A program made the position numbers and the translations under genes. This document shows positions 5,147 to 64,000 of a DNA stretch of 64,000 nucleotides, piece after piece (position 1 is the stretch's first letter; each line of letters starts with the position of its first letter). The DNA comes from Parcubacteria group bacterium Gr01-1014_31 (GTDB lineage: Bacteria > Patescibacteriota > Patescibacteriia > Buchananbacterales > GWA2-38-13), in assembly GCA_007376135.1 (NCBI GenBank), contig VMFR01000004.1, positions 21,745-85,744 of the forward strand, read 5' to 3'. Under the pieces are notes generated by a model that ran no database searches, was not told the origin of the DNA, and saw nothing but the letters and a program-made list of their open reading frames with translations.

Positions 5147-5157
5147 GACAAACCATT

Positions 5158-5238: not shown

Positions 5239-5242
5239 CCGT

Positions 5243-15613: not shown

Positions 15614-15644
15614 ATGTTATATAGTAGACGCAAATATTATCTAT

Positions 15645-15675: not shown

Positions 15676-15693
15676 CCGATAAAAAGTTGTTAT

Positions 15694-15830: not shown

Positions 15831-15841
15831 TTCATCGAGAA

Positions 15842-15928
15842 CGGAGGGGGTGGGATTCGAACCCACGATACCATTGCTGGTATAACAGTTTTCAAGACTG
15901 TCCGATTCAACCTCTCTCGCACCCCTCC
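15842..15928 (-). tRNA. tRNA-Ser (anticodon TGA)
   Basis: GGAGGGGTGCGAGAGAGGTTGAATCGGACAGTCTTGAAAACTGTTATACCAGCAATGGTATCGTGGGTTCGAATCCCACCCCCTCCG has a 7-bp acceptor stem, anticodon loop CTTGAAA, a long variable arm and T-loop TTCGAAT. Confidence 0.8.
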
Positions 15929-16022
15929 GTTCTCGATGCTATTACACCATGGAGGCGGAGAAGACCCTCGTGCAACACTCTCGCCCGCCTACCGGCAGGC
16001 AGGCCGCTGGATGCGACCTTCC

Positions 16023-16343: not shown

Positions 16344-16364
16344 AGAAAAGAGGGAATTAAAAAA

Positions 16365-16774: not shown

Positions 16775-16860
16775 GGAGAGGGTGGGATTCGAACCCACGA
16801 GGGACTTTCATCCCCAACGCCTTAGCACGGCGCCGCTTTCGACCGCTCAGCCACCTCTCC
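16774..16860 (-). tRNA. tRNA-Ser (anticodon GCT)
   Basis: GGAGAGGTGGCTGAGCGGTCGAAAGCGGCGCCGTGCTAAGGCGTTGGGGATGAAAGTCCCTCGTGGGTTCGAATCCCACCCTCTCCG has anticodon loop GTGCTAA, a long variable arm and T-loop TTCGAAT. Confidence 0.8.
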
Positions 16861-16951
16861 CCAGGCGTACTCCGTCAAGGCACGACATCGGCCGTTATTT
16901 TTCCGCGACTGACCGTTTCATCATACCAGAAACGCGGCTTCCTGTCCAGCC

Positions 16952-20252: not shown

Positions 20253-20335
20253 TGATGTTTGGGGCTAGTACCCGGTGCTCTGTGCCCAGTGCTCCGTGCG
20301 TATCGTCACCGTCGTAACTATACTGAGCACATGCG

Positions 20336-21509: not shown

Positions 21510-21613
21510 TACCGTAGTGCTAGGTACTACGTACTATGTGCAAAGTACTTTTCGTGCGCGGATGAACAACTGCCGACCGAACGCACATAGAACTTAGCAC
21601 TTAGAACGTAATA

Positions 21614-22768: not shown

Positions 22769-22779
22769 GAATAGAAGGT

Positions 22780-27000: not shown

Positions 27001-30000
27001 GCAAAGCTGATCCCTCTTGTCCCACTGCTGCGGCCGCTGCGGGCAGCTCCACCTTAGCGTTCTGCAGCTCAATGCGGGCATGCTCAACATTTTCCTCCTG
27101 GGTCTGCACCACCTGCTCCTGTTCGTTGACGCGTTGATTGGCCGCGCCCAACTGCCCCGCGCTGCGGTCATAGGCCTCTTGAGCGGCGTTCACATCGCGC
27201 GCCTCCGCATACCGGGCAGCCTGCTGGCGCACGAGCGTCGAGGATTTCAGCTTACTGCGGTCGGCCTCCAGCGCTGCCAGCTCCCCGCGCTCTCCCTCGA
27301 GCGCCGCTTGCGCCCCCTCGGTCGCCGACCCCCACTGCGGACTGACCTCGGCCAAAACTTTTTCAGCGATATCATCCAGCTCCGCATCCGGCAGCTGGTC
27401 GAGCGATTTTTGCAATGCCGCAATGAACGCCTGACTGTTGGGCCCCGCACTCGCGGCTGCCCTCTGGCGCAACGCCTCGGCTTGCCGCAGAGCCTCCTGG
27501 CGCTGGTCCACCACGCCCCGCTGGTCTGCGACCTGTTTGTTGAGGGCGTCCAACTGCGGCTGCACCTTGGCCTGGGAATCGCGCGCCAGATCGCGTTCCT
27601 TGATGGCTTCCCGGTCATTCACGGTAAAACCCAATTGGTCGCCGCGCGCTTTTGCCTGCTCCGCCCGCTGGCGCGCCGCCTGGCCTTTGGCGATATGTGC
27701 ATCCGTTTCCCCAAGCAACTCGCCGCGCTGGCCTTCCAGCTGATCGAGTTTTTGCTGTTCCGCGGTCAGCGCGGTATTTGCCTGCCGCACCTGCGCTTCG
27801 GCCCGGGTGGACTCCTGGGCGCGCGAACCTTGCTGGCCCGCTGCGCCCGTCAAAAGTTTTCCGATCTGTACATCCGGCTTTTGCTGCCGTCGGCGATGAA
27901 TTTCTACGATCTCCTCGTCGGTGATGGCGCGCTCCGACTTCTCCTGCGGCGGCAGCGTTTCATCGGGCTTGAGCGTGCGACCGCGGTAGCGGGCACCCTT
28001 TGCTTTATTGCCGGCCTTATCGGTCACCTCCAGTTCATCCAGGAACTTCCGCGTCTGCTCGGACAACGTGTGGGCGTTATCGTTCACGCCCAACGAGTGC
28101 GCCAGATATTCTTCCGGCGTTTCCTGGTCGAACAGTTGCTGCTGCTCCTCGGACAACGTGCCTCGGAACGCCTGACGCTGCTCGTCGTTCAGCTGATTGG
28201 CAAGAGTATGACCGTACTCGTGGCGACGGGCGGTGAAGCGGCTACCGAACGCGGCGTTGTTATGCAGGGACAGCGTTGAAGCGGTATCCAACCGTTTTTT
28301 GAATTCTGCCTCGCGCTGCTGGGCGCTGACCTCTCCGGCCGCCAGTGAGGAAACGTCCTTATCCTGGGACATCTGCCGCAGCGCCTCACCCTGCTGATTC
28401 TCCGCTATCGCGGCATCCTTGTAGCGATAGCCGGAAACGGCACCCGACGCATCGCGGAGCTCCTCAACGCGGCCAGCGGCATTGCCCTCCTTGAACTCCG
28501 CCGCTGCCCATTGCCCGACCACGCGGTCAGCGTACTGCTTGTCCGCGTCGGCTGGTTTCAATGTTTGATACTTCGCAGCATAGGCATCGTGCAATTCTTC
28601 ATTCGTCACAGCGTGGGGCTGCTTACCCAACCGTTGCGCGGTTTCCTGACGGAAGGCAACCCCTCTGCCAACCAGCTCTTTCCTGTAATCCTCCGCCAAA
28701 TTCTTGGCGACGATATCCTTGTTCAATTTCCGCTCCGCGGTTGACTCATCGTAGTTGACGGCGGTCATCCCCGGAACGACGCCATACCGCTGACCGGCTT
28801 CGGCGGACTCGAAGTTCACGCCGATACCGGCCACCGCCCTGCGTCCATATTCTGCCAATGGGCCTTCGGCGTAGCCCTCGGCTGGCCGCCGCTCGATGGA
28901 GGCAACACCCCGCATCGCATCAAGGCTCTCGCTCCGCTTTTCTTCCACCTGCTCATGGCGGACGATCGCCGACGCCGCATACAGCGTCCCGGCGCGAATC
29001 TCTTCCTGGTGCAGGCGTCCATACGCTTCATTGGCCTCGGGCTCCGACATCCCGGCGGCAATCAGCCGCTGATACGCTTCCTGCGAAGCGGCCTGGACCT
29101 CGGGGCTGTAGGTTTCCATCAACGGCCGTCCACCCTTCGGGGCGTACCCATCATGCAGCCGCCATTCTTCGGGGACCTCCTCATCTTGCAGCGCCGCAGG
29201 TTTTCCGTTGATATCGGTCGCCCCTGGTATACCATGTTGCAAATATTCCAGCCATTTAGCGGCGGTTCGGCTTTTGACGTAGGTTTCCAACTCGGGCGAG
29301 AGCGGCCCCGTACGAGCGGCGGCATAACTTGTAGGTTCGTAGGTCTTTCCTGATTTTGTAAACTGCTCCTCTGTATACTTATCTAATTCAATCCCAGGGG
29401 TGCCATCGTAGTTTTTCACCCCAGCCAAATTCATGATCCTTTCAACCGCTACCGCCTGCTGAGAGGAGATATTCTTCTGCCCAAAAAGGTTGGCTACCCC
29501 ATGGTGGCCCTTCGCCTTCAGCTGGTCGTAGACCGACCTGATATCCAGTGCCATGGAACCGGTTTTTTGGTCAAAACGGAAGCCGGCGAATTCCGCGGCG
29601 CGGGGCTGCAGGCCATGGCCGCGTTGCGCCACCACGCGACCGAAAAAGACGGTATCGAACTTCGCCGACGCGATCTTACCCAAGCGGTCCATCCGGCCCA
29701 TGCGAGAATGGACGACCTTTCCGCCCGACAGCACGTCTTCAAACGGCTGCGCGGTGGGATGGAATTTGAAAAAGGCTTTGCCTTCAGTCTTGGCAACAAA
29801 ATTTTCCATTTTTCCGCGGCCGATGATCGTACCGAACTCTTCGCCGAACTTCTCCTCGAGTTTCCGCAATACATTCGCGCGGATATTCGGGTTGTTATGG
29901 ATGGTCGGAGCCGCTTTGTGCTCCGCCGCCAGCTCTTCCCGGGCGCTGTCTTCAGACACCAGGACGTTTTCCACGTCCCCGGTGGGGCGCCCCTTGCTGT

Positions 30001-31822: not shown

Positions 31823-31835
31823 GGTTGACAGTTCA

Positions 31836-32837
31836 TTATGCGGCAACGCGATACTCCTCCTCCGCTTCTTCCGAGGCCAACTGCTCGTCTTCCATCACCG
31901 TAGTGGCGTATTCGGATTCCAGCATGGCTCCCTGGGATGCGCGTTTTTTTCGCTGGTGCCGGGCATACGACCACACGTACAGGGCCGAAATCGTCCAGGT
32001 CGGGATAATGCCAACGATCGGTATCCACTCCACCAGCATCGTAAAAAGCTTGCTCGCCACCCACGCCATCCAGCCGATCTCATGCTGTTTAATGAAGAGC
32101 CTCGCCCCCAGCATCAGCGCAAGACACGCGAAATCGAACAGCTGGTCAATGCCCAGCCCGATACTGACGTCAAAGATATCCACCAGATCGTTGATGATGG
32201 AAACTGCCAGCACCAGCAGATACGGCCAATCGGAGTTCTGCGCCGCGCCGCTGATGAACCCGGCGACCGAGCGTCCTTGGGCCGCCACTTTTTGCTTATT
32301 ATCTTTCGATAAACGCCCGCCCATACCTCCCATGCGGCGCAACTCCCGCAGGCTCGCAGCTTGCTCACGGCGCAAGGCCACTTCCCGTTCCAGCGCTTGC
32401 TGGAGAGCGTCGCTCTCTTCTGTTGCCTGCGCCTGCTGCTGAGTCTCCACGCCTGCCTCCTTGTTCCCCCGCCGCTGCGCCATCGTGTCGGTGAACTGTT
32501 CCAGCTTCGGCGCCAGGGTCATCTCCCCGGGACGCGACGGCCGTTGGCCTGCATTCCTGAATGTTTCCGCTTCATGTTGCTGCCGGACCGCCACGAATGC
32601 ATCCCGCGCGCTGGCAAACCCATCCGGACCGCCCCGGGACGCCTTTCCGCGGTTTGCCCGCTGCCGGTCGCGCTGGCGCATCGCGGCAAGCTCTTGCGCA
32701 TATCGCTGCTCGGGTACCGCCGTTTCCATCTCCATCACCGGAACGTCCAGCTCCCCTTCGGCCTGGGCGGACGCGCCTTTCCCCGGCCGCGGTGGCGGCG
32801 GTGGTGCTGCGGGTCGGCGTGTCGTAAGGTCTGCCAT
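31836..32837 (-). CDS. Hypothetical membrane protein (C-terminal four-TM bundle, Pro/Ala/Gln-rich N-region)
   Basis: Start chosen at the ATG at 32837 (MADLTTRR), 5 nt after the giant gene's stop. The C-terminal hydrophobic segments begin WPYLLVLAVSIINDLV... Confidence 0.5.
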   Translation of the reverse strand: MADLTTRRPAAPPPPPRPGKGASAQAEGELDVPVMEMETAVPEQRYAQELAAMRQRDRQRANRGKASRGGPDGFASARDAFVAVRQQHEAETFRNAGQRPSRPGEMTLAPKLEQFTDTMAQRRGNKEAGVETQQQAQATEESDALQQALEREVALRREQAASLRELRRMGGMGGRLSKDNKQKVAAQGRSVAGFISGAAQNSDWPYLLVLAVSIINDLVDIFDVSIGLGIDQLFDFACLALMLGARLFIKQHEIGWMAWVASKLFTMLVEWIPIVGIIPTWTISALYVWSYARHQRKKRASQGAMLESEYATTVMEDEQLASEEAEEEYRVAA

Positions 32838-32842
32838 ATGCT

Positions 32843-35800
32843 CTACCGTCCGCACAATTCCGGCCGAGCCGAGTCGCAGACACGCACCAGAGCCGACCGG
32901 GCCTCCACCCACGCGCCGTTATTATCATCGGCGATCGCCGGTGTCCCATCATCGGGGCAAGTATTACAGGCGAGGTTGGTCGTATTCACGTCCGCAAAAA
33001 TGGCGTTGGAACACCAGCACCAGTTGTCGCGCACCAACACGCCGACCTGGAAATCGCAGTAGCCGTCCGGAGTACCACTCCCGCCAGGAAGCACCCCCTT
33101 GTCACAGGTGGTCTGCACGTACTTATAGGTATGGGTGAACTGGAACGGGTCGGCCGGGTCGGACTTATCGCGCAACCCCGAACGCCAGTCGTTGTCGGTT
33201 ACCATCGTATCGCGGTTCTCCATATCCCAGCGCACGCGCAGCAACCGCAGCGGAAGCTGGTCGTTGTCCACCTTGACGTTGAAACTCAAGGTCACGTTCC
33301 CTTGGCCGACGATGTAGAAGATCGGGGCTTCGGCGTTCTCGATCTTGACGTTGAATACTTCGGGCGACACGCCGCACCAGTCCCCGCTGCCGTCCGGGTC
33401 GGTGAGCGGCGTTTCCGTGAACCGCGAGGGGCGGATATTGTCACGGCAACGGTCAGCCGGCGGCCGCCAGGCGGTCGTTTCCTGGCAGCTGCCCGATACC
33501 TGGCATTCGACGTCGGTGATGCAGGTGCCCGGGTTTTTAGCCGACCCCGCGGAACACTGCCCGACGCAGCTGGCCTGGTGGGCGGCCGGGTTCCAACAGT
33601 CACCAATATTCTGGCAGGCTCCCAGCACATTCACGCCGGCTGAACAGTAGCCATAGGTGCCATTGGCCGGTGCCTGGCCATCCGGGTCCTCGCCGACGCA
33701 GGTGCCAACGCCGCTGCCGTCGGACTTGGTATTGCACATTTCATCATTGAAGCAAGCCACGCCGCGCAAGGGGTAGGTGGGGCTGGCGTCATCGCACCGT
33801 CCGTAGATGAAGCCGGTGATATCGCACGTTTCGCTTCCGCCACCCGGGCAGTCGGCGGTGGTGCGGCACGGCACTTCCGAATCGTTCAGGTCATTGCCGT
33901 CGCCAAATGACCCGCAGCGGCCGGTCGCACAGAAGATCTTGGGATTCCCGGCGCACGCGGTATCCGAGGTGCAGGTGATGTTGAGCGCCGTTTCCGCGTT
34001 CTCGGGCTCGCCGGTCGGGTAGTAGGCGCAGTACCCGCCGCTCTTCACGCACACCGACGTAGAATCCACACAATCGTTGGACCCCGGGGCGCAACTGTCG
34101 CCCGACCTCGGGCCGCCCGCGCAGTAGTTGGTCGGCACGGTGTAGGTCTCATAGGCACTGCCGTTCCAGCGCCAGTCGCCGTAGCTGGTCGCAAACAGGC
34201 GCTTGAGGCGTTCGCGCGCGGTATGGAACGACGCCACCTCCACCGAGTCGTTCGGCAAACGGCCCGCCGCGGCCGACCACCGATCGTAGAAATGATCAAA
34301 GTAGACTTGCCCCGCCTGGTCGCCCGGGTATTCGTACGGATGGCCGAAATCCGCGGCCTGCACGCGGTCGGAAACCAGCGGCCACTTGGTCGGGTCGCCG
34401 ACGAAATTGCGTCCGATGACGCCGAACGGCGCAGCCAGGTCGGAAACCTTGTAGTTGAGGGTAGGCACCTGGTAATCGGCGGACAAAAAGTCCTGCACGG
34501 TTTCCAGGCGCTCCTGCCAGCCGCGCTGCGCGCCGTCTTCATCCACCACCTGCACCACCTCGTGGCAGGCACGCTGCCAGTAGGTGGGCACCCGCCGCTG
34601 TTCTTCACTGTTGAAGCCGAAAATGGTCGTCGGGTCTTCGGGGTCCCACAACACCAGCCCGGTGGCGCCGCATTTCGGGCAGAACATCAGGTGTTTCTTG
34701 GTCGGCCGATCGCTGGCATCCTCGCGCGCCTTGTAGTCGTACCATTGGTTACTCTCGGTATCCGTCAGGTAAAGGTCGGATTGGTCGGGCGTGCAGTACC
34801 AGCGGCAGCGAATACCGGGCTCGAAGAAATTCCCGCATTTTGAACGCCGCTGTTCCGGGAGGTAGCCGGGCGGGCAGGAAACCGTACCGCAGGTCATGGA
34901 ATTACGTTCGGCGTGGTTGGCCGCGGTCTCGGCGATCGCGCCGATCGGATTGAACATCCCCCACCAGCCGAAGTCCGTCTGGTAGCAATGATTTAATTCG
35001 AACCGCCCCGGCCGCCGGGTTTCCAAAATGACCGACTCATTGCACATGAAGGTCGACGCCCGCAAGTTGCCGCGCCAGCCGGTGATGCCGACCCAGCCGC
35101 CGGTCAATTCGTCCACGGGCAGCCAGTTGAGGCACAGGTACGGGCTGCGCGGGTCTTTCTCCACGCAGAACCCGTAGAGGCCGAGGAATTCGCTCCGGCC
35201 CTGCACGTAGTGGCATTCGCTCGCCTCCGCCAGCGACGTTTGCGACAGCAAACTGCCCGTCAACGGGTCGGTCAGCGGGTCATTGATATCGACGATCTGG
35301 GATTTGGCGGGCTCGTCGCCGGTATCCACCGGAGCCTGCGCGGTCCAGCGCGGAGCGCTGCCCGACGGATAGACGCGGCAGGATTCAAAGATAAGGTCCT
35401 CGGTAGGGTTGGTGCCGACCTGCAGCACCGGCTGGCAGACGCCGTCACGCTCGTCGCCGGTATGGCAATCCGCGTCCTCCAGGCATGCCGCGCCGCGGTT
35501 GCCGGCCACGCAGACCTTGCGCTGGGTCATCACGCCGTAGGGGAAATACCCGTCCACCTTGGTATCCGCGTCCCACTGGAAACCGACCTTGGCGTAACCG
35601 CTGAAGAATTGGCTCAGTTGCACGCTGCCGGCATCAAAGGTGAGCGCCTGCAATTCCTCGGTCGGGTAGCTGGAACAGCGGCCCGAGATCGAGTCCAAAC
35701 GGTCGCAGGTGGCGATCTGCTGGCAGAACTCCTGGACCTGGCCGGTGCGGAAGCTAACCTGCTTGCGGCTGGAGATACAGTCGAGCCAGCGCGCGCAGGT

Positions 35801-38800
35801 CCGGTCCGGCGCGACTTTCACCAGCAGATTGCTATCGCAGGTACCGGGCCGGCAGATGCCGCCCGCACCGCAGTCGCCGTCCGAGGTGCAGCCCGCCCCC
35901 GGACGCGTCCCGCCGACGCACTGCTGGGGCTGGCAGACCGATGGCGGCTGGCCGGCAACGGTCGCCGTAGTGCTGTATTTGAGTGTCGGGTCGCTGGTGT
36001 CATTCACCAGAACGCATCCCTGCGCCGGGTCATACACCCCGTTGCAGGAACTGCGCTCGATGCTGTCAGCCAGGTAATGGTAGACTCCCGTCGGCTTGAG
36101 GTCGACGTCATCGTAGGTGCCGGCGTTCACGATCTTCACGGTCACTGCCCGATCGCTTTCCAGGACGAAGAATCGGCCGGTGAAGCGCCGGAATGTTGAT
36201 TCCGTTACGCCACCGACCGGCAGCACGACCGTGTCGCCGCGGGTCGCCAGCACCCCGTTCGAGAAGATCGCCACCGAATGGTCGAATTGGGTGAAGATCG
36301 GACGTTTGCTGCCATCGACGGTGGTCACGACGATGGACGCATCGCGCGCCGAATTCTTCACGGACGCGGTGACCGTATAGAGCGTGCCGCCGTTCAACCC
36401 GAGACTCTGCCGGACCTCGGTACCCGCCGGGGTCGGGGCCGTCACCCGCACGGCGGAACTGCGGTTGACTCCCTCGCCGCGCTGGTGGTCGGCCGGAGAC
36501 CCCGCCAAATTCCACGAATTCAGTTTACTCGCGCTGCAGACGGAAAGTTCGCACGCCTCGCCGCCGCAATCGACAGGCCCGCTGCAAAGTGTGCCGTCGG
36601 CACAGAACCGCAACCCGCCGCTGGCCGCCGAGCAATCAGTGTCCAGACGGCAGACCGTTTGCGCGTCATGACTGCAAACCCGGAAGAACCCCTCAAAATT
36701 ACTGTTGGGGAGCATCCCGGCCTGCGGGTCAGACATCGGATCGACGTAGGCGGTGCAACTGGCGTACTCGGCTGGACACTGGCCCACCCACGTGCGGCAG
36801 TCGCCGCCCGATGTTTCGCAGACCCCCGTGCCACAATCGATATTGCTGTCGCACCGCGCACCCTCGAAGGTTCCGCCGCCGCGGCACACTTTAAAACTGC
36901 AATCCGCATCGCTGGTACACACCTGGCCCTCGAGGTCGCCGCCCTGGCAGGTTTTCCCCGGCTGTGTTTGGCCGAATCGCGTGGTAATGGCCGGACAGTC
37001 GGGCACCGACGAGGTGCTGCCGGTGATGAACCAACCGAAATCCTGACGATGCGGGATCTGCTTGTACTCGCAAGTGCGCGCACCCGGATCGCGGAAATAG
37101 ACCGTGCCGACCTGCGGCGAGACATACTCACGGCAACCGACCTGGTCTTCGGTGCACAAGCTGACCCCGTACCGTTCCGGATCGTTGACGAGGTAGCGCG
37201 TTTGGTACCCGCTGATTTGGCCACGCGCGTCCTGGACGGGCAGCCCGAACGCCTGGCAGCCCTCCGCCGCGGCGGCACACTCCTTGCTCAGGTCGCGCAC
37301 ATAGTACGCCAGGGTGTCGGCCGGCACCGTCACTTCTGCCTGCGCATGGCCGACATTGAACGGTTCGGCGAGCGCGCTGGTCGAATTCTTCGTGTCCACA
37401 AATTCCTCGCAGCCCACGGAGCTGTCGCGGCACAGCCGTTCGAACGACTTCAGGTAGGTTACCTGCCCTTTGCTGGTCGTGTATTCCTGGCAGCCGAGCG
37501 CGAACTGCGGAGAATTCGGCGCCGGGAAGCGAACCGGGTCCAGCGTCGGATCGGTGTCGCAGATGAGCGGCGTGCGCCAGGAATTCTTGACGAGGTAGCT
37601 GTACTCCTGCACTTCCGTCAGGGATACGAAGTCCACGGCCACCGGCGTCCCGCCAGCGGTCGTGAGCCGTAGGGTGGCGACCGGGTTGACGCTGGTCACC
37701 AAAATCGGCTCGGTAGTATACTCCTCCCAGTCCGTCAGTACCCGCAGGTTGTTCTTCAGTTCGCAGGAAGTGCCGTCCTGGCCGCAGTCCACCCCCAACA
37801 TGTTCACATTCACCGTGACAATACCGGTCTGCGCCTTGGCCCAGAACGTCAATTGGTAATTCCGTCCGGGAACTAAACGCTCCCGCAGGAACCCGCACCC
37901 GAGCTCCAAATTTTTCGCCCGGCATTCCTGGCCGGTGTTGAAAAGCCGACAGGTATCGGGCTCGGTGGAGGCATCAAAACAGTCAGCGGTCGATCCTGCG
38001 ACACAAGCAGGCAAAGCATTGCTGCAGACAGTGGCCTGCCGCATGGTCTCCATGGTTGTACCGGCGATCGAATGGCCGCCGATGGTCACCGCATCGCTAG
38101 AAATGGAGCCGACCATCCATCCCAACGTGTCGCCATCCTCAAAATCGTCATACCACACCGTGCGCAAATTACCGCCGGCATTGCCGCGGTACTCGCGGCA
38201 GCCGCTCTGTGCGGCCGGGCAGGCGATACTTTCATTGGGTACTGCCTGATAGATACACTCATTGCGCGGCTCGAACTCCTGGCCCCCAATGCCGACGCAG
38301 TCGTCCTGGTGCATGAAGCAGTCACTGCCGCCTACCAGCTGCATGCCGCCCTGTGCCAGGCAGTTGGCAAGCGGCGCATCGATGTCGCCGTCGGTGTCGG
38401 TGTCATCGCCGCACACGCCCCAGTACCCGCCACTGCCTTCGCAGGCCCCTTGCGACGAATCGATGAGGCGGAACGGATGGCATTCGTCTGAGCAGCTCAC
38501 CGTCTCGCGCAGTAACCGATAGTACACATTGCCATTCGTTGCATGGAATTCACGGCAGTTGGGGTTGATGACAGCGTCAAGAGCCGTCGCACACTGCCCC
38601 AGGTCAAGGAACGCATCTACCCAGTCCGGCTCGTCCGTATCGCCAACCGTCCCGCCGCTGACCGCCGGAACGCGGTCGGCAACGTCCCGCCGCAGTGTGT
38701 AGCTCTTCAGCTGATAGCCGTTCACTTCCGAGCCGACCCACGTGTAGTAGGTGCGGCAGACATTGGCGTCGGGCTTGGTGCACTGGCGCAGATACGTATA

Positions 38801-41800
38801 GCTGCCCCGCCCCTCGCCGCCGCGTGCCACCTCGTCAAGATTGGTGAACTGCTCACAGCCGGCAAAACGAGCCTCGCACGAACGGGCCGTGTCCGCGATG
38901 AAATACAGGAAGTCGGGCTGCCGCGCGGATGGGACCGCATCGGCAAAGAACGTCTCCGTCTGCGAAAACGCGCTGTAGTCCACGCACGCGGCCGGGCACA
39001 TATCGCCCGCCGTCGTGATACCCGGCAACGGCGGTTCGCCGTTGGTCGGCGTGTAGCGTTCGCACCCGACCTCGTCGGCGCGGCAGACCTGGCTGTAACG
39101 GCTGCACGCCGAGTGGTCGGTCTGCGGGTCGCCGGTACACCCAAGGTACGCGGGCGACGTTTTCAGATGCACCACGGGGTTGCTGATGAAGTCCCGGTAC
39201 GCCAACGCCGCGGGCTCCGCGCGCGGAGCGACCTCGACGATGTGCACTCCGTCCACGGCAATGTCGCTGGCCGCGGTCGAACCAAAGCGGAGACGGAATT
39301 CACGATGGCCGCTCGGTGCCGCCATCGGCTCGAAGAGGAAACGCTGCCATTCCGCGGTCAGCGGCAGCGGGCTGTGGCAGCTGCCTGCCCCCGCCGTAGT
39401 GCAATCCGCCTCGCGCCGGCAGGCCGGATTGGCGCCACCGTCGCACACCCCCAACCCGTCCGCGATCAATTCCAGACTGCGCGCCGTACCGCCGCTATCC
39501 ACGCTGTCCAGCCACGCCCGCCAGGTGACATTCGCGGTATTGGCCTTGGCGAAAAATGATACCTGGTAGGTCGCGCCGGATTTCAGGAGCGGCAAGGCGG
39601 CGGTGCGAAAATCTTCCGACGTGGCGTCACTGTCGGTGTAGTGCAGGTACGTACTGCCGAATGCCGCGCCTTCCGTTTCGCGCGCCACGATGTCGCCGGC
39701 GGTGTCCCCGCCATGCCGTTCCCAATTTGGCGGGAAACGGCTCGACGGGTCTGGCCACTGCTCAAAACTAGAATTGTAGATGAAATTAACCAAGCCCTGG
39801 GTGGCCGGGATGAGCGCGCGGCAGCCGCTTTCCTCCTGGCTGCAGGCGGCAATATCGCGGTCGAAGTAGAGCTTGCTGCCGTCGGCATCCTGGGTGCCTT
39901 CAAGGTAGACGGTCACATCCTGCAACGGACAAGCGCGCTCCAGCCGGACCTCATCGAACCAGACGGTTCCCACCGGATTAATGCCCGCGACGGCCTCCAC
40001 CACCATCCGCACGCGCCCGCCCGCCAGCGGATCGGAAGTGGTGCAGCTGACGGTTGCCCACTGCCCCTTGGCATAATCCGCGTCGATGGTACTGCAACCC
40101 CCGCTCGAGGACGGCACCACCTCAACGTAGGCACGGCCGAACTGTAGCGTGCTATAAATGCGCGCCGTCAAGGTGTAGGGCGGGTTCGCGGTCGGTGGCA
40201 CGGAAAGCGGATCGGATTGCGCGACCATCTGCGCAACGGTGCCGTCGGGATCGATCCGCACGGCGTAGTTGCCGACCGCCACTTGGTTGTTGACGCCGGC
40301 GATCCGTTGCCAACGGCTGCCGCCGCCGACCACGTCGTTGGTCGACCAACTGGCCGCGAAGATGACGCGGCCCGCCTGCACGCTCAAGTCGGCGCTCTCG
40401 GTCTCAAATCCGCTGTTGTCGGCAAAACTTTCCGCGGCCCCGCAGCGCGGTACCGTGCAAGCGACCGCCCCGTAGGGGATCTGACAACTGATACCCGTTG
40501 CTACGTCAGTCGCCAGGCAACTCGCCCCCTGGCAGGTTTCTCCGCGCGGGCATTCGGCGTCCTGGGCGCAGGAGCGGCCGCTCACGCTGCAGCGCCCCAG
40601 CTGCTGGCACGGTTTACGCACGCGCTCGGCTTCGCCGACGCACGACCACACCCCCGAACCCACATTGAAATCACGGCAGTACCACTGGCACCCGACGGCA
40701 TTGGCATCGCAGCCGCCGGCATCCAACGTGTCGCCGAGGTAGCTGACCGCGCGGTTGGCGTCATCCTCGTAGCTCCGGCAGCTGTCGTACTGCGGCGGAC
40801 ACTGGGTCCCGGCGAATTTCCAGACCGGGGTCTCCTGAGTGCACAGACCGTAGGCGCGACAGGTGCCGTTCGCATCCTCCACGATGCAGGATCGCGTATC
40901 GGTGCAGGTATTTTCGCGGGACACGGTCCGGCGTTCGAACTGGTAGCTGGGCAGCTGCCCCGTCAACGGGTCGGCGGGCTTGTTGCGCTGCACGATCGTC
41001 TCTTCGCGCGAGTAGACGCTGGTAAATTTATCCCCGGGCCCGGTCAGCCGGCAGTAGGTCTCGGGGGCCTTGAGCACCCAGCCGTCATCCACCAGCCCGT
41101 AGAACGGCGAATCGGGGTTACCGAAAGCGCGGATGATATCGTTGAGCGAGTAGGCCTGCCGCTGCTCCAGTTGGCCGATATACGCGGCCGCCAACTCCCA
41201 ACCGACGGGCAGGATGCGGTACTTGCGCAGAATGACGAATGACGAGTGCGCGTACCCATCATTGGCGGTCGGCTGCGTGCCCGCGCGCGTGTAGCCGAAG
41301 GTCGAACCCGGACCATCGGCGAACAACAATCCTTCCTGGATCGCCTGGCGCACCGTCAGTTTGCGGTCAATGGCCGTCTTGAATGATTGGTTGATAACGC
41401 CGTCGCCGACCAGGAGCGAGGTCACGTCCATTCGATTGAGGCGAGGGTCGCCAATGGCGAGGTTGGTGGAAAAGAACGCCTCAAAATCCTGGCGCGCGTC
41501 GGTCCGCAGTGCATTGGGGTCGGCGGTCGGCGAACGCAGACCCTCCAATTTGCTCCAGTTGAACTTATCCGGCTTGCTGCTGCCGCCGCCAAATCCCTTA
41601 GTGTACAGCCGCTGCAGCATCTTGGATACCAGCGTGGAGGTGAACGCGTCCACCGCATCAGCCACGGCCTCGCCGGTATACGTGAAGTAGACGTCACCCA
41701 GCGTACCGGGGGAAAGCGCATCGGCAGACCACTCCTTAACCAGCGACCCAGGCGTCAAAATATTTCCGGCGATGTCCACCACGGGCTTCAGCCCCTGGCT

Positions 41801-42589
41801 TTCCAGCCGGCTTAAGATCTGCTCCTCGTGGGCCTCGGCCTGCTTGGAGTAGAAGCTCGACCATACTCCGATGCCGATGCCAAAGTCATTCTGGTTGGGC
41901 GAGAACGAATCATGGATGATCTGGTCGAGCTTGGGCGGATTGTCGATGAACTGCTCCCAGTTGTCAGCCAGCTGTGTGAACGTACACGATGGTTCCGCCG
42001 GCGGCTGCGCGGCGTCCAAAAGCCCCAGGGACAGCTTTAACTTCAGGTCAAGCCGCGGCCGGCAGAGGTTGGGCAGCCCGACGCCTTCAGCGAACGACTG
42101 GATGAAGTGTCCGGCGGCCGAATCGCCGACGCGCGACAGGTACGCACCCCAGCCTTCCGTTTCATACAACGGCTTTTTTCCTTTACCACCCTCAGCTAAT
42201 TGCGTCGCCGTATCCACGGCCAGCCGCCGCAGAAAATAGCTCAAGGCGTTCTTATAGGCTACGGCCGCGGCGGTCTTCGCATACTTCTCCGCATTTTTTT
42301 TGATCCACTCCCAAACTTGCTGGAACAGATTCGGCTCGTCGCGATTATCCACTTCCTGGCCGGTGCGCGGCTGCGTTGGCGGGCTATCAAAGGAGCCGCC
42401 ATCACCGCTAAAAGTTGCCTCCCCGCCGCCATCAAAAGACCCGGCCCCGAAGCTTCCTTGGGCGAACGCAACCGGAGCAAGCGTGAAACTCTGAAGAGTA
42501 AACAGCGCAAGTAGCGACGCAGCACACCATTTCCGCCAGCGCAGGGCGCGACGGCGCGACGATCGAACCGAATATACCATCAGTCTCAT
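32843..42589 (-). CDS. Giant (3,248 aa) cysteine-rich secreted or surface protein
   Basis: ATG at 42589 overlaps the upstream stop (ATGA). N-terminal signal peptide (LLALFTLQSFTLAPVAFAQG). Hundreds of Cys residues in CxxC / C-x(n)-C patterns throughout, Gly/Thr/Asp-rich, no TM beyond the signal. Confidence 0.7.
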   Translation of the reverse strand: MRLMVYSVRSSRRRALRWRKWCAASLLALFTLQSFTLAPVAFAQGSFGAGSFDGGGEATFSGDGGSFDSPPTQPRTGQEVDNRDEPNLFQQVWEWIKKNAEKYAKTAAAVAYKNALSYFLRRLAVDTATQLAEGGKGKKPLYETEGWGAYLSRVGDSAAGHFIQSFAEGVGLPNLCRPRLDLKLKLSLGLLDAAQPPAEPSCTFTQLADNWEQFIDNPPKLDQIIHDSFSPNQNDFGIGIGVWSSFYSKQAEAHEEQILSRLESQGLKPVVDIAGNILTPGSLVKEWSADALSPGTLGDVYFTYTGEAVADAVDAFTSTLVSKMLQRLYTKGFGGGSSKPDKFNWSKLEGLRSPTADPNALRTDARQDFEAFFSTNLAIGDPRLNRMDVTSLLVGDGVINQSFKTAIDRKLTVRQAIQEGLLFADGPGSTFGYTRAGTQPTANDGYAHSSFVILRKYRILPVGWELAAAYIGQLEQRQAYSLNDIIRAFGNPDSPFYGLVDDGWVLKAPETYCRLTGPGDKFTSVYSREETIVQRNKPADPLTGQLPSYQFERRTVSRENTCTDTRSCIVEDANGTCRAYGLCTQETPVWKFAGTQCPPQYDSCRSYEDDANRAVSYLGDTLDAGGCDANAVGCQWYCRDFNVGSGVWSCVGEAERVRKPCQQLGRCSVSGRSCAQDAECPRGETCQGASCLATDVATGISCQIPYGAVACTVPRCGAAESFADNSGFETESADLSVQAGRVIFAASWSTNDVVGGGSRWQRIAGVNNQVAVGNYAVRIDPDGTVAQMVAQSDPLSVPPTANPPYTLTARIYSTLQFGRAYVEVVPSSSGGCSTIDADYAKGQWATVSCTTSDPLAGGRVRMVVEAVAGINPVGTVWFDEVRLERACPLQDVTVYLEGTQDADGSKLYFDRDIAACSQEESGCRALIPATQGLVNFIYNSSFEQWPDPSSRFPPNWERHGGDTAGDIVARETEGAAFGSTYLHYTDSDATSEDFRTAALPLLKSGATYQVSFFAKANTANVTWRAWLDSVDSGGTARSLELIADGLGVCDGGANPACRREADCTTAGAGSCHSPLPLTAEWQRFLFEPMAAPSGHREFRLRFGSTAASDIAVDGVHIVEVAPRAEPAALAYRDFISNPVVHLKTSPAYLGCTGDPQTDHSACSRYSQVCRADEVGCERYTPTNGEPPLPGITTAGDMCPAACVDYSAFSQTETFFADAVPSARQPDFLYFIADTARSCEARFAGCEQFTNLDEVARGGEGRGSYTYLRQCTKPDANVCRTYYTWVGSEVNGYQLKSYTLRRDVADRVPAVSGGTVGDTDEPDWVDAFLDLGQCATALDAVINPNCREFHATNGNVYYRLLRETVSCSDECHPFRLIDSSQGACEGSGGYWGVCGDDTDTDGDIDAPLANCLAQGGMQLVGGSDCFMHQDDCVGIGGQEFEPRNECIYQAVPNESIACPAAQSGCREYRGNAGGNLRTVWYDDFEDGDTLGWMVGSISSDAVTIGGHSIAGTTMETMRQATVCSNALPACVAGSTADCFDASTEPDTCRLFNTGQECRAKNLELGCGFLRERLVPGRNYQLTFWAKAQTGIVTVNVNMLGVDCGQDGTSCELKNNLRVLTDWEEYTTEPILVTSVNPVATLRLTTAGGTPVAVDFVSLTEVQEYSYLVKNSWRTPLICDTDPTLDPVRFPAPNSPQFALGCQEYTTSKGQVTYLKSFERLCRDSSVGCEEFVDTKNSTSALAEPFNVGHAQAEVTVPADTLAYYVRDLSKECAAAAEGCQAFGLPVQDARGQISGYQTRYLVNDPERYGVSLCTEDQVGCREYVSPQVGTVYFRDPGARTCEYKQIPHRQDFGWFITGSTSSVPDCPAITTRFGQTQPGKTCQGGDLEGQVCTSDADCSFKVCRGGGTFEGARCDSNIDCGTGVCETSGGDCRTWVGQCPAEYASCTAYVDPMSDPQAGMLPNSNFEGFFRVCSHDAQTVCRLDTDCSAASGGLRFCADGTLCSGPVDCGGEACELSVCSASKLNSWNLAGSPADHQRGEGVNRSSAVRVTAPTPAGTEVRQSLGLNGGTLYTVTASVKNSARDASIVVTTVDGSKRPIFTQFDHSVAIFSNGVLATRGDTVVLPVGGVTESTFRRFTGRFFVLESDRAVTVKIVNAGTYDDVDLKPTGVYHYLADSIERSSCNGVYDPAQGCVLVNDTSDPTLKYSTTATVAGQPPSVCQPQQCVGGTRPGAGCTSDGDCGAGGICRPGTCDSNLLVKVAPDRTCARWLDCISSRKQVSFRTGQVQEFCQQIATCDRLDSISGRCSSYPTEELQALTFDAGSVQLSQFFSGYAKVGFQWDADTKVDGYFPYGVMTQRKVCVAGNRGAACLEDADCHTGDERDGVCQPVLQVGTNPTEDLIFESCRVYPSGSAPRWTAQAPVDTGDEPAKSQIVDINDPLTDPLTGSLLSQTSLAEASECHYVQGRSEFLGLYGFCVEKDPRSPYLCLNWLPVDELTGGWVGITGWRGNLRASTFMCNESVILETRRPGRFELNHCYQTDFGWWGMFNPIGAIAETAANHAERNSMTCGTVSCPPGYLPEQRRSKCGNFFEPGIRCRWYCTPDQSDLYLTDTESNQWYDYKAREDASDRPTKKHLMFCPKCGATGLVLWDPEDPTTIFGFNSEEQRRVPTYWQRACHEVVQVVDEDGAQRGWQERLETVQDFLSADYQVPTLNYKVSDLAAPFGVIGRNFVGDPTKWPLVSDRVQAADFGHPYEYPGDQAGQVYFDHFYDRWSAAAGRLPNDSVEVASFHTARERLKRLFATSYGDWRWNGSAYETYTVPTNYCAGGPRSGDSCAPGSNDCVDSTSVCVKSGGYCAYYPTGEPENAETALNITCTSDTACAGNPKIFCATGRCGSFGDGNDLNDSEVPCRTTADCPGGGSETCDITGFIYGRCDDASPTYPLRGVACFNDEMCNTKSDGSGVGTCVGEDPDGQAPANGTYGYCSAGVNVLGACQNIGDCWNPAAHQASCVGQCSAGSAKNPGTCITDVECQVSGSCQETTAWRPPADRCRDNIRPSRFTETPLTDPDGSGDWCGVSPEVFNVKIENAEAPIFYIVGQGNVTLSFNVKVDNDQLPLRLLRVRWDMENRDTMVTDNDWRSGLRDKSDPADPFQFTHTYKYVQTTCDKGVLPGGSGTPDGYCDFQVGVLVRDNWCWCSNAIFADVNTTNLACNTCPDDGTPAIADDNNGAWVEARSALVRVCDSARPELCGR

Positions 42590-60996: not shown

Positions 60997-62805
60997 ATGG
61001 TTGTCAAACACACACCGGCGCGTCCTGACGTAACGTCAGGAGCGCGTCCATCGTCGTCGCGGCCTCCGCGGCGGCGCGATCGCCGTCCTTCCCGCCCCGT
61101 GGCGGTCAGTGCGGCACCACACCCGAAAATCGCTCCCGTTGCCAGCGATACGCTGCGCATCATCCCCCTCGGCGGCCAGGAAGAGGTCGGCCGCAACTGC
61201 ACCGTATTCGAATACGGTAACGACATCATCGTGCTGGACATGGGGTTGCAGTTCCCCGAGGAAGACATGCCGGGGATCGACTACATCATCCCCAACATGA
61301 ACTACCTGAAGGGGAAAGAGCGCAACATCCGCGCCGTCATCCTCAGCCATGGCCACCTCGACCACATCGGCGCCGCCCCTCACCTCCTGCCCCAGCTGGG
61401 CTGGCCGCCGGTCTACGCCAGCAAACTGACGCTGGCGCTGGTGCGCAAACGCCTCGAGGAATCCCATCTGACCCAGCAACTCAAGGCCCACGAGATCAAA
61501 TCCAGCCGCGAGCAGTTCCAATTCGGTAAGCTGCGCGTGAATTTTTTCGATGTTACCCACTCCATCATGGACGCGATGGGCGTCGTAGTCAGCACGCCCG
61601 ACCTGTCGGTCATCCACATGGGCGACTGGCGCTATGACCTGGACCCGGTGGAGGGCCGTCCCACCGACTTCTCGGCGCTGGCCCGCTGGAACACCAAGCA
61701 GCGACCCAGTCTCCTAATGATGGAAAGCCTCGGTTCGACCAAAGAAGGCCACCAAGGCTCCGAACGCGAGGTCTTTGAAACCATCCGCCGCATCGTGACC
61801 AACGCCAAAGGCCGCGTCATCATCGGCACGTTCTCCTCGATGCTGGAGCGCGTCGGACAGATCATCCGCATTGCGGAGGAAACCGGTCGCAAAGTCGCGC
61901 TCGACGGCTTCTCGATGAAGACCAACGTCGAGATCGGCAAACGCATCGGTTACCTGCGCTTCCGCCCGCAGACGCTCATCGACATTTCCCGCATCCACGA
62001 CTACCCGAAGAATCGGGTGGTAGTGATCTGCACGGGCGCCCAGGGCGAGGACCGGGCGGTGCTGATGCGCATTGCCACCGGCGAACACCGCCACGTCAAG
62101 GTGGAACCGCAGGACACCATCGTCTTTTCCTCTTCCATCATCCCGGGCAACGAGCGCACCATCCAGCGCCTCAAGGATACGCTCTACCGCCAAGGCGCCG
62201 AGGTCTACCACAAGGAGATCATGGACGTGCACGCCGGCGGCCATGCGTTCATCGAGGACATCAAACTGTTGCTGCGACAGGTCAACCCCACCTACCTGAC
62301 GCCGGTGTACGCCAACCACTACCTGCTGCGCGAGGCGACCAAGGTTGCCAAGTCGATCGGTTTCCCCGAAGAGCATATCTTCCTACTGGATAACGGCTCG
62401 ATCCTCGAGATCCGCGGCAACCGCTTGCGGGTGCTGCCCGAAAAGGTGCCGACCAACTACGTCTTTGTCGACGGGCTGGGCGTGGGCGACGTATCGCACG
62501 TCGTGCTGCGCGACCGCCAGATGATGGCGGAGGACGGCATGATCGTGGTCATCGCCACCATCGACGAACGCCGCGGCCGGCTGGTGCACAATCCCGATCT
62601 CATCTCCCGCGGGTTCGTCCACATGAAGGAAAACCGCAAGCTCATCGAGCAGACGCGCGCCAAGGTCAAGCAGATATTTGCGGGCAACCTCAAGGAAATG
62701 GACGAGAATTTCTACCGGGACAAGATCCGCAATGAGGTCGGCGAATTCCTCTACCAAAAAACGCAGCGCCGCCCGATGGTCCTCCCGGTCATCATCCAGG
62801 TGTAA
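60997..62805 (+). CDS. rnj: Ribonuclease J (metallo-beta-lactamase / beta-CASP)
   Basis: IIPLGGQEEVGRNCTVFEYGNDIIVLDMGLQFPE and HGHLDHIG motifs, beta-CASP and C-terminal domain. The annotated ATG at 60997 adds a ~55-aa Arg/Pro/Ser-rich extension containing a 13-bp palindrome, so the true start may be downstream (e.g. GTG ~61100). Confidence 0.85.
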   Translation: MVVKHTPARPDVTSGARPSSSRPPRRRDRRPSRPVAVSAAPHPKIAPVASDTLRIIPLGGQEEVGRNCTVFEYGNDIIVLDMGLQFPEEDMPGIDYIIPNMNYLKGKERNIRAVILSHGHLDHIGAAPHLLPQLGWPPVYASKLTLALVRKRLEESHLTQQLKAHEIKSSREQFQFGKLRVNFFDVTHSIMDAMGVVVSTPDLSVIHMGDWRYDLDPVEGRPTDFSALARWNTKQRPSLLMMESLGSTKEGHQGSEREVFETIRRIVTNAKGRVIIGTFSSMLERVGQIIRIAEETGRKVALDGFSMKTNVEIGKRIGYLRFRPQTLIDISRIHDYPKNRVVVICTGAQGEDRAVLMRIATGEHRHVKVEPQDTIVFSSSIIPGNERTIQRLKDTLYRQGAEVYHKEIMDVHAGGHAFIEDIKLLLRQVNPTYLTPVYANHYLLREATKVAKSIGFPEEHIFLLDNGSILEIRGNRLRVLPEKVPTNYVFVDGLGVGDVSHVVLRDRQMMAEDGMIVVIATIDERRGRLVHNPDLISRGFVHMKENRKLIEQTRAKVKQIFAGNLKEMDENFYRDKIRNEVGEFLYQKTQRRPMVLPVIIQV

Positions 62806-62813
62806 AAAAACAA

Positions 62814-62848
62814 TTGACCATGAACAATTGACAATTAACATTGAGACG
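62814..62848 (+). promoter_or_regulatory. TTGACNN heptad array (5 units) immediately after the rnj stop. Distal half of the third heptad-array pair.
   Basis: TTGACCA TGAACAA TTGACAA TTAACAT TGAGACG. Confidence 0.4.
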
Positions 62849-62985
62849 GCAGAAAAATGAGTGAAAAGTCAAAAAATGTAGTCTTCGAGCTGGTCGAGAA
62901 GCTACATTTCGGCCAACTTCTCGACTCGTCCGCCTGCGGCGGACTCGCTCGAAGTATAAAAAATCCTTTTTCTACAGTCTCAACC

Positions 62986-63051
62986 TTTGACCTCTGACTG
63001 CGGTCAAGGGTCGCAAGTCAAATGTCAACGGTCAACGGTCAACGGTCAAAT
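62986..63051 (+). promoter_or_regulatory. GTCAANN heptad array, including a perfect (GTCAACG)x3, overlapping the annotated start of the ligase-like gene
   Basis: TTGACCT CTGACTG ... GTCAAGG GTCGCAA GTCAAAT GTCAACG GTCAACG GTCAACG GTCAAAT. Confidence 0.5.
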
Positions 63052-64000
63052 CCTACTCCCTGGCTCCGCCTGGCCGAACTTGGCGTGCTGGCCGGGGCGC
63101 TCACGCCGCTGGCGTTCAGCAGCCACTTCATGTACCCGCTGGTGTTCCCGCGGGTCATGATCTTCCGCGCCATCGCGGTCCTGACCGTACTGGCGTGGTT
63201 CGCGGCATCCCGTCGCGACCCCGGGCTGCGCATTGACTTCCGCTCCCCGCTGGCTTCGGCGTGGCTCGGCTTCCTCGGCGTGCAAACGATCGCCGGCATC
63301 CTCGGAGTGAACCCGTACGCGAGTTTTGCCTCCAGCATCAGCCGGGGTGATGGGATCATCACCCTCGCCCATCTGGTGGCATTCGGGCTCGTGGCAACGG
63401 CGCTCCTGCGCGACCCGCAACGCCGGCAGCGGTTGTTCACCGCAGTTATTGGCATGCTCGCTCTCCAGGCGGTGCTGGGGCTGGCACAAACGCTCCGCTT
63501 GCCCGCGGTACCGCTGTTTGGCAGCGACCGTCCCACGGGCCTGACCGGCAACCCTTCCTACTTCGCCACGCTGATGATCTTTGGCATTTGGCTGCCGTTC
63601 GCGCTCTCGGTCCTGCCCGCAGCTGCGGCAAACCGAGAACGCCTGCGCCAAGTTGCCTACTACGCCGTTACCACCCTCTGCGCACTCGCACTTTGGCTGA
63701 CGCAAATCCGCGGCGCCATCCTCGCGACGCTGGCCGTCGGGGTCGTGGTTCTGGCCTACGCCGTTCGTCGGGCGAAAACCCCCGTTCTGCGAAAACGCGC
63801 CGGTGTGGCGCTGGCAACGCTGTCGGTCATCATCGCCGGTGCTTGGGTTGCCCGCAATACGGCGCTCGTGGCCTGGGACCGCACGCTCAAACGCGTTAGT
63901 GAAACGACGCTCTCGGCCATCACCGTCCAAAACCGCCTGATGACCTGGGGCGCAGGGCTGCAGGCTTTCCGCGAACACCCGTTCCTGGGTTGGGGACCGG
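63025..64000 (+). CDS. O-antigen ligase / O-antigen polymerase-like (Wzy_C) polytopic membrane protein. The 3' end runs off the window.
   Basis: Multiple TM helices. RPTGLTGNPSYFATLM (NPxY-type loop motif) and C-terminal WGAGLQAFREHPFLGWGP. The ATG at 63025 lies inside the heptad array, so the true start may be the in-frame GTG at 63088. Not in the ORF track because there is no stop inside the window. Confidence 0.7.

Follow-up and report, generated by a model that had tools for sequence, protein, structure and literature searches.

The junction between the RNase J gene (rnj) and the downstream gene for an O-antigen-ligase-like protein (wzy) in Parcubacteria group bacterium Gr01-1014_31 raises the question of what the inverted arrays of seven-nucleotide units are that fill it, and whether they tie an envelope-glycan gene to stress genes elsewhere in the genome. 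The window that we analysed is a stretch of 64,000 nucleotides from contig VMFR01000004.1, in which an RNase J protein, 100% identical to that of the metagenome-assembled genome Gr01-1014_31, is followed by a Wzy_C protein according to Pfam. An original prediction, made from this sequence, had likened the arrays to those in front of htpX and clpC, had suggested that the three genes may belong to one putative regulon and that wzy may start at a GTG codon downstream of the arrays. We favour, with a probability of roughly 55%, the reading that the spacer between rnj and wzy belongs to a dispersed family of palindromic spacer elements that turns over fast and is built from heptanucleotide repeats, its members being probably transcribed fold-backs at operon junctions. 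Such elements occur at many gene junctions in this Parcubacteria group, mostly inside operons. They are imperfect palindromes whose arms are heptad arrays and which occupy the whole spacer, beginning just behind a stop codon and reaching the following start codon or running across it. Their fold-back potential is strong, their length shifts in heptad units and they turn over between species.

The array pair at the rnj–wzy junction is real and lies far beyond chance. The left arm (62814–62841) reads TTGACCA TGAACAA TTGACAA TTAACAT, in which two cores are exact and the other two deviate by a single base. In the right arm (63003–63051), the units are GTCAAGG GTCGCAA GTCAAAT GTCAACG GTCAACG GTCAACG GTCAAAT, with exact cores in six of seven units. 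Tandem Repeats Finder reported 3.7 copies of a period of 7 with 100% matches at 63024–63049 and a period-7/14 array at 62810–62844. The sequence GTCAANNGTCAA occurs eight times in the window, compared with an expectation of 0.06, and a four-heptad score of at least 16 out of 20 was reached at three loci only (4161–4246, 5153–5238 and 62812–63058) and never in 20 shuffles. Being head-to-tail copies of seven nucleotides beyond chance, the arrays belong to the heptanucleotide long simple-sequence repeats. The window contains exactly three TTGAC…GTCAA heptad pairs, at the lemA–htpX, htpX–clpC and rnj–wzy junctions, and the polarity is the same at all three, with the TTGAC arm on the 5′ side and the GTCAA arm on the 3′ side. 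The proposed likeness in architecture between the three sites was therefore confirmed, as the sites share core and polarity, and each has a left end that follows directly on the stop codon and a right arm located at the ATG. Of the five heptads that had been counted at 62814–62848, the fifth, TGAGACG at 62842–62848, lies outside the array and starts the terminal repeat of an inserted element.

For the region 62806–63095, an RNA fold of −98.6 kcal/mol with nested stems was predicted (z = −4.6), and the wzy ATG is base-paired in the predicted fold-back. A terminator scan of 62500–63300 and 3900–5500 found no intrinsic terminator with a GC-rich stem and a U tract. The promoter scan of the rnj–wzy spacer gave a single weak match within the left arm (TTGACC-16-TAACAT, 62814–62841, 9/12). 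Rfam gave no match within 62750–63150 at a cutoff as loose as E ≤ 10, and its only matches in the window were four tRNAs. The motifs of σ32, CIRCE (controlling inverted repeat of chaperone expression) and HAIR (HspR-associated inverted repeat) were rejected by eye on the sequence of the spacer.

The middle between the arms had been described as a spacer of about 130 bp with several dyad symmetries. It is indeed strongly structured, but it measures 154 nt and is mostly a nested insertion of 139 bp. The insertion ends in GAGACGGCAGAAAAA (62843–62857) and TTTTTCTACAGTCTC (62967–62981), which are complementary at 13 of 15 positions, and has a predicted fold of its own (−49 kcal/mol, z −4.6). It has no Rfam match, and its 46-amino-acid open reading frame (ORF) matched no protein family in NCBIfam. 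The sequences that flank it, AACATT and AACCTT, are identical at five of six positions. Loci of relatives are denoted here by L and a number. In the rnj–wzy spacer of L131, a module with the same ends lies at 4886–5015 with a direct duplication of CATTT on both sides, and in L129 one end of a copy is found at a different locus (59–73). With terminal inverted repeats, no recognised coding capacity and copies elsewhere, the stretch 62843–62981 shows the features of a miniature inverted-repeat transposable element (MITE). The rnj–wzy spacer of L129 is 111 bp long and lacks the insertion, i.e. it represents an empty site. It consists of about nine TTGAC/TTAAC heptads, a loop of about 10 nt and GTTAA/GTCAA heptads that run across the ATG. 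The first 24 nt or so of the element in the window are identical at 21 of 24 positions in L129, where they stand right after the rnj stop codon. Removal of 62843–62981 from the window sequence gave one long predicted hairpin that includes the AUG among its paired bases (−38.5 kcal/mol, z −4.1), and once the nested insertion is removed, the rnj–wzy element is as compact as its two sisters. These comparisons indicate that the long spacer with dyads is a MITE-like insertion and not a regulatory loop. The ancestral element was compact, with about 100 nt from the rnj stop codon over the wzy ATG and the first 10 codons, and the insertion into its left arm came later, in this lineage. Modules of about 130–140 bp with the 15-bp repeats GAGACNGNAGAAAAA / TTTTTCTACAGTCTC were seen in at least three related genomes and in two genomic contexts (L129:1-73, L131:4886-5015 and the window). 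Their interiors differ; those of L131 and L129 hold a GTCATTCCGG…CCGGAAT(C/G) hairpin that is also present in L213. A viral-contig scan with the 15-mer terminal repeat gave single matches per contig only, which look like chance.

Table 1. Coordinates of the rnj–wzy element, its parts and the other inverted heptad-array spacers, given as positions in the window.
Feature	Position	Strand	Description
rnj (RNase J) stop codon TAA	62803–62805	+	ORF 60997–62805, Pfam RNase_J domains; the element begins 6–8 nt downstream
Left arm, part 1, TTGAC-type heptads	62812–62842		AATTGAC CATGAAC AATTGAC AATTAAC ATT
MITE-like insertion inside the left arm	62843–62981		139 bp, 15-bp terminal inverted repeats, 46-aa ORF
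Left arm, part 2 (AACCTTTGAC CTCTGAC TGC), and short loop of the ancestral hairpin	62982–63001		Aligns to L129 (left arm, inner part)
Right arm of seven GTCAANN heptads, three of them forming (GTCAACG)x3	63003–63051		Also covers the first 10 wzy codons
Start ATG of the Wzy_C/O-antigen-ligase-like gene	63022–63024	+	739 aa in the full contig; Pfam Wzy_C, L128 gene call, orthologue N-termini
Sister element 1, lemA–htpX spacer	4161–4253		Six TTGAC/TTAAC heptads, 16-nt loop, GTCAA/GTTAA heptads; stops 5 nt before the htpX ATG
Sister element 2, htpX–clpC spacer	5153–5238		2–3 TTGAC heptads, eight GTCAA-type heptads; stops 4 nt before the clpC ATG
Fourth inverted heptad-array spacer, different core	21510–21613	−	GTTCTAA GTGCTAA GTTCTAT … CATAGTA CGTAGTA CCTAGCA

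The position of the wzy start codon within the right arm had been taken as a sign that translation begins further downstream. The coordinates given for the in-array ATG (63025) and the alternative GTG (63088) were both 3 nt too high; the ATG starts at 63022 and the in-frame GTG occupies 63085–63087. Because of an in-frame TGA at 62995–62997, ATG 63022 is the sole canonical start upstream of residue W14. Orthologues of Wzy were reached through their RNase J neighbours; a direct homologue search yielded two distant proteins whose N-termini could not be aligned. In every case (L129, L131 and L122), homology begins upstream of the GTG. The original prediction had stated that orthologues with a conserved N-terminus would make the in-array ATG the real start, and L129 keeps the MSIVNGQRSNVTPW N-terminus together with an in-array ATG. 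The RNase J of L129 is 84% identical in the search table and 81% identical in a global alignment, and its Wzy begins with MSIVNGQRSNVTPWPLRL, compared with MSTVNGQRSNPTPWLRL in the window, from an ATG that sits within a GTCAA array of its own. The Wzy of L131 begins with MASVPGARDHLRTF and was aligned to the window protein by BLASTP from residue 1, at a start where the DNA (ATGGCCTCCGTTCCTGGCGCC…) is non-heptadic. In L122, Wzy begins with MTDSW, which is four residues ahead of the conserved W and likewise precedes the position of the GTG. L128, an independent assembly from the same organism as the window, has an identical spacer, and its gene call also begins at the in-array ATG. Over the four coded heptads, a single one of the 20 core positions differs between the window and L129 (GTCAA to GTTAA), compared with four of the eight NN positions, as read off the alignment. 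Within the N-terminal tail of Wzy, 12 of 14 residues are identical to L129, compared with 52% in the remaining protein and a divergence of 0.56 at 4-fold degenerate sites. Taken together, the orthologue comparison indicates that ATG 63022 is the genuine wzy start and refutes the GTG restart, which settles the start of the Wzy-like gene for annotation. The peptide MSTVNGQRSN is thus both translated and encoded by heptads.

The elements are also constrained at the level of their sequence. Between the window and L123, the two sister elements differ by 5 substitutions in 196 positions (2/100 in element 1 and 3/96 in element 2), and the sole length change is a 14-bp indel in element 2, which corresponds to two heptads. 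At 4-fold degenerate sites, the divergence between window and L123 is 17/182 (0.093) in the block of low divergence around the elements and 0.26 overall (Fisher p = 0.007 for the spacers against the local sites). Compared with the heptad spacers, synonymous sites therefore evolve 3.6-fold faster locally and about 10-fold faster in the region. The rnj–wzy element was kept between the window and L129 although their 4-fold sites are 0.43–0.56 diverged. In addition, the 20-mer TTGACNATTAACCTTTGACC, found at 4170–4189 in the lemA–htpX spacer of the window and also in L123, recurs in the non-orthologous rnj–wzy spacer of L129; a viral-contig scan gave no match to it. Judged by these alignments, the elements are under sequence constraint rather than junk and form dispersed sequence families that are either mobile or read by something sequence-specific. 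The block of low divergence to L123 extends from about 4050 to 5250 (0.09, compared with 0.26–0.50 on either side) and takes in the 3′ end of lemA along with htpX and the two spacers, its right edge coinciding with the htpX–clpC array. A recent recombination tract with the repeats as its boundaries might explain it.

In the window, LemA, an M48/HtpX protease, a ClpC-type AAA+ protein, a PD40 protein and RadA (Pfam) are encoded in one co-directional block, and the gene order lemA-htpX-clpC-PD40-radA is retained in the relatives that we compared. The cores of the arrays are a different matter. Both GTCAA elements are retained in L123, whose HtpX is 98% identical. L212 (HtpX 75%) has a GTCAA-type element at htpX–clpC, GTAGTGA/TCACTAC heptads at lemA–htpX, a AATTCCAAG-type element at clpC–PD40 and GATTACG/CGTAATC heptads at PD40–radA. 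L125 (HtpX 79%) carries AATTCCAAG/TTTGGAT at lemA–htpX, and at htpX–clpC (L125:9964-10106) a near-perfect fold-back of 130 nt composed of (TGCAAAG)n, a GC-rich palindrome of 19 bp and (TTTTGCA)n. The predicted fold of this spacer (−77 kcal/mol, z −8.9) leaves a GAGG free just ahead of the clpC ATG, and the element contains a terminator-like core with a GC-rich stem and a U tract. In L126 (HtpX 73%), three further array types, among them the AATTCCAAG type, are found at htpX–clpC, clpC–PD40 and PD40–radA. L213 keeps the gene order and has inverted heptad arrays with other cores, and in L130 a (TGAGCAC TGTGCAC)n fold-back lies between convergent genes. Many of the flanks at 80 further htpX loci also hold such fold-backs with unrelated cores. 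Fold z-scores of the relatives' spacers reach down to −9.7, and that of the L129 rnj–wzy spacer is −5.2. The AATTCCAAG-type element occupies three different junctions of the same operon in three species. This family, AATTCCAAG(C)NCCAA…, was seen at L125:8956-9075, L126:10907-11072, L212:3760-3894 and L164:1181-1345 and always begins at or right after a TAA stop codon. Within the window, too, a fourth spacer has a core of its own. It lies between the gene at 21614–22792 and a gene for a PrgI-like component of a type IV secretion system (T4SS; Pfam PrgI), upstream of the latter, and its predicted fold has −35.4 kcal/mol and z −2.8.

Among the 126 tandem arrays of three or more copies in 519 kb of related loci, a period of 7 is more frequent than any other (56 arrays). 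Outside long ORFs, a compartment of about 10% of the 519 kb, 27 of 47 arrays have this period. Arrays of period 7 occupy 17 of 164 co-directional, 3 of 23 convergent and 1 of 42 divergent spacers, and by a crude measure 8 of 32 have an inverted partner, i.e. at least two reverse-complement cores within 200 bp. A scan of a genome collection for four perfect GTCAANN heptads gave, among the matches listed, mostly heptamer arrays of cyanobacteria and Bacteroidota and few of Patescibacteria, the latter being (GTCAAAA)n in coding DNA. A shared regulon of htpX, clpC and the envelope-glycan gene is unsupported by these data, since the same junctions carry unrelated cores in relatives and arrays also stand at clpC–PD40, PD40–radA and T4SS junctions and between convergent genes. 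An architecture that is general, combined with a motif that is not conserved, speaks against a regulon of htpX, clpC and wzy with a single defining operator. On these comparisons, the rnj–wzy element is not to be counted as evidence for a stress regulon of htpX, clpC and wzy. A GTCAA-specific factor may still act in this one genome. Repeated motifs upstream of stress genes in a single genome should hence not be read as a regulon without a check of relatives.

As to how such an element might act, we propose tentatively, at somewhat less than even odds, that it works as a transcribed fold-back within a polycistronic RNA. The element would be transcribed together with rnj on one polycistronic RNA, and its long imperfect stem would draw the rnj stop codon and the wzy AUG together and thereby bury the AUG. 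Expression of wzy would then hinge on the ribosome that terminates at rnj and opens the stem, or on cleavage by a double-strand RNase. The period of 7 nt most likely reflects replication slippage in heptad units and not the reading frame of a regulator. An experimental precedent for the mechanism is provided by hmw1A of Haemophilus influenzae, where (ATCTTTC)n repeats in the 5′ untranslated region form a hairpin that is cut by RNase III and whose number of units slips (PMC12721329). Both systems have tandem 7-nt repeats just upstream of a surface-structure gene, and those at wzy would, like those of hmw1A, be transcribed and make up one arm of a long hairpin. However, hmw1A has one repeat arm against a G-rich stretch and at least 10 perfect units, and its mechanism and phase variation were shown experimentally, whereas the element described here, known from sequence, has heptad arrays of few imperfect units in both arms, stands between two genes and extends over a start codon.

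Several observations weigh against the reading of the spacers as transcribed fold-backs. When 25 significant spacers were aligned as palindromes at the DNA level, 27 G:T oppositions were counted on the sense strand versus 36 A:C oppositions, so there is no excess of G:T, unlike the usual pattern of selected sense-strand RNA helices. At the rnj–wzy junction, (GTCAACG)x3 pairs imperfectly with the left arm and gives rise to five A:C oppositions, and at htpX–clpC the arms are very unequal, with 2–3 versus 8 heptads. The five substitutions between the window and L123 gave a mixed picture when mapped on predicted pairs, with no clear compensatory signal, and loops and NN positions are conserved relative to L123 as well, which pairing by itself would not lead one to expect. 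A core that recurs at three sites of a single genome, together with the 20-mer shared across species, points to sequence-specific recognition or mobility and not to a role that any hairpin could fill. The depletion of arrays in divergent spacers is a trend only (1/42 versus 20/187, p = 0.14).

A rather doubtful alternative is that the elements are an undescribed class of palindromic heptanucleotide-array elements at Parcubacteria operon junctions and as such genuine cis-regulatory modules, in several families, under purifying selection and with turnover between species. Each family might have a sequence-specific factor that recognises it. Alternatively, the fold-backs might serve as ribosome-coupling or RNase III devices, and these devices would determine how strongly neighbouring cistrons are expressed relative to each other, in genomes where Shine-Dalgarno-led initiation is largely missing. 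If this were true, the GTCAA family would tie htpX, clpC and the envelope-glycan gene together in this genome. It seems unlikely that the arrays are an operator in the strict sense, i.e. that a repressor of the omega/ParB ribbon-helix-helix type or a CtsR-like one reads contiguous convergent 7-bp units on double-stranded DNA and co-regulates htpX, clpC and wzy. Such an operator would account for the GTCAA core and the polarity that three sites within 64 kb have in common, two of these sites lying at classical proteostasis genes, for the cores that are conserved relative to L129 while NN positions vary, for the missing G:U excess and arms longer than pairing requires, and for the 20-mer conserved across non-orthologous sites and the purifying selection at sequence level. 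The core GGTCAA also comes close to that of the CtsR operator (RGTCAAA NAN RGTCAAA), another tandem heptanucleotide directly upstream of clpC, in Firmicutes (PMC12634643). The CtsR operator differs in that it has a period of 10 and two copies, overlaps the promoter, is conserved across species and belongs to a clpC operon headed by ctsR, whereas the arrays here have a period of 7 and comprise two inverted arms with 4–10 copies, clpC has no ctsR beside it and the motif is replaced in close relatives. Omega (ParB) of plasmid pSM19035 binds at least four contiguous 7-bp units per site in direct and inverted orientation (PMC9499535), a number that the arrays reach with 4–8 convergent heptads per arm; the omega sites serve plasmid partition and copy control through a known ribbon-helix-helix protein, whereas cores vary by junction here and the 64 kb contain no candidate. 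The operator explanation is further weakened by close relatives with identical gene order and unrelated cores, where 2–4 cores per operon would need many co-evolving regulators, and by arrays at non-stress junctions and between convergent genes. CtsR spacing occurs at chance (3 matches versus 2.05 expected), and among the scanned ORFs of the window (Pfam, NCBIfam) no regulator gene and no helix-turn-helix or CtsR family was found. The promoter scan revealed no convincing promoter that overlaps the htpX or clpC arrays, whereas the lemA promoter of this lineage is canonical and conserved. The conservation of NN positions and loops relative to L123 also speaks against an operator.

REPIN/REP (repetitive extragenic palindrome), Correia-type and MITE-like palindromes are about 100 nt long, form several families and give co-transcribed hairpins that are possible targets of RNase III. 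The elements resemble them as imperfect palindromes of about 100 nt in spacers after genes, at non-orthologous sites in related genomes. We consider it quite unlikely that they are merely selfish or neutral repeat DNA, i.e. palindromes of the REPIN or MITE kind or slippage products that sit harmlessly at tight operon junctions and have no host function. This explanation would be in line with the several sequence families at non-orthologous positions in different species, with the bona fide MITE-like element nested in the rnj–wzy copy, with indels in whole heptad units and with the lack of a G:U bias; the mere 10 bp between rnj and wzy in L122 show that the element is dispensable. The arms of REP and MITE sequences are not known to be internal tandem heptad arrays. 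Here the arms are such arrays, and three copies of one family occur within 64 kb, in which no Y1 transposase or RAYT (REP-associated tyrosine transposase) gene was seen. Selfish DNA is also hard to reconcile with spacers that evolve so much slower than local and regional synonymous sites, and with a rnj–wzy copy that keeps its core, ends and ATG position across a change of 43–56% at 4-fold sites. For slippage, it can be added that heptanucleotides are the commonest class of prokaryotic long simple-sequence repeats and have been ascribed to polymerase slippage, according to Mrazek 2007 as cited in PMC4679880. It is very improbable that (GTCAACG)x3.7 after the ATG forms a contingency locus that switches the envelope-glycan gene by frame shifts of ±7 nt. 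A perfect repeat whose unit length is not divisible by 3, placed in the 5′ end of a gene for surface polysaccharide, would suit this idea, as would the length change by heptad units in a sister element between near relatives and the phase variation that heptanucleotide repeats drive in hmw1A (PMC12721329). However, there are just 3.7 copies, the independent assembly of the same organism has an identical tract, L129 has the same number of heptads with imperfect units, the same frame and the same tail length, and the sister arrays at htpX and clpC are non-coding.

Two candidate systems were at odds with the sequences. For a CtsR operator, matches to RGTCAAANANRGTCAAA with up to 3 mismatches occur at chance level with no good match in the arrays, the period is 7 and not 10, and such an operator is not conserved at clpC, as L125 has the TGCAAAG type and L126 the AATTCCAAG type at htpX–clpC and GTCAA is found only in L123 and L212. 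In the case of an RNA thermometer, element 1 and the rnj–wzy element are both predicted to fold with a paired AUG, but the elements are not heat-shock-specific, being present also at T4SS, PD40, radA, wzy and convergent junctions.

Comparable repeats with heptamer units are known from cyanobacteria as short tandemly repeated repetitive (STRR) sequences. Heptamer repeats of TAACTGA have been described in marine Beggiatoaceae, some Cyanobacteria and Bacteroidetes, with 169 direct sets and 1 indirect set (PMC4679880). They resemble the arrays here in that 2–6 or more heptamers end a few nucleotides from start codons without Shine-Dalgarno sequences, before many unrelated genes. They differ in being one fixed heptamer per genome, nearly always in direct orientation, whereas here inverted pairs with many cores are found within and between genomes. 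The elements described here are thus distinguished from known kinds by inverted heptad arrays in both arms, by core families that coexist, by their location at tight operon junctions and by the overlap with start codons. Our literature searches found no description of such elements for Patescibacteria. Small, streamlined Patescibacteria genomes retain, at many tight junctions, palindromes of about 100 nt that are built from 7-nt units and are constrained in sequence. If these elements control the coupling or processing of polycistronic RNA, they would provide a handle on regulation in an uncultured phylum with almost no known regulatory elements.

The surroundings of the elements showed some additional features. 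Upstream of lemA, a canonical sigma-70-type promoter (TTGACA-17-TATAAT) at 3505–3535 is fully conserved in L123, L125 and L126; a small hairpin that carries a T run comes next. This promoter illustrates what genuine ones look like in the lineage, and transcription of the lemA–radA block probably depends on it. Relatives encode a third giant beta-helix protein upstream of lemA. In the window, two giant ORFs on the minus strand, 24077–31846 (2589 aa) and 32843–42589 (3248 aa), adjoin T4SS-like genes (VirB4/TraG P-loop, PrgI and T4SS pilin). Between two T4SS-like genes, a 14-bp tandem repeat (CCCGGTGCTCTGTG / CCCAGTGCTCCGTG) at 20271–20299 constitutes another short-period array in a co-directional spacer. 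The ORF-poor stretches 14302–16022 (1.7 kb) and 16344–16951 (0.6 kb) have a lower GC content of 0.45–0.49 and contain two minus-strand tRNA genes (15842–15928 and 16774–16860) in sequence that is otherwise unassigned. In L121, a spacer of 548 bp (L121:8794-9341) has a canonical promoter (TTGACA…TATAAG), downstream of which lie a stretch that is GC-rich and highly structured and a hairpin resembling a terminator; the spacer is probably a structured RNA gene.

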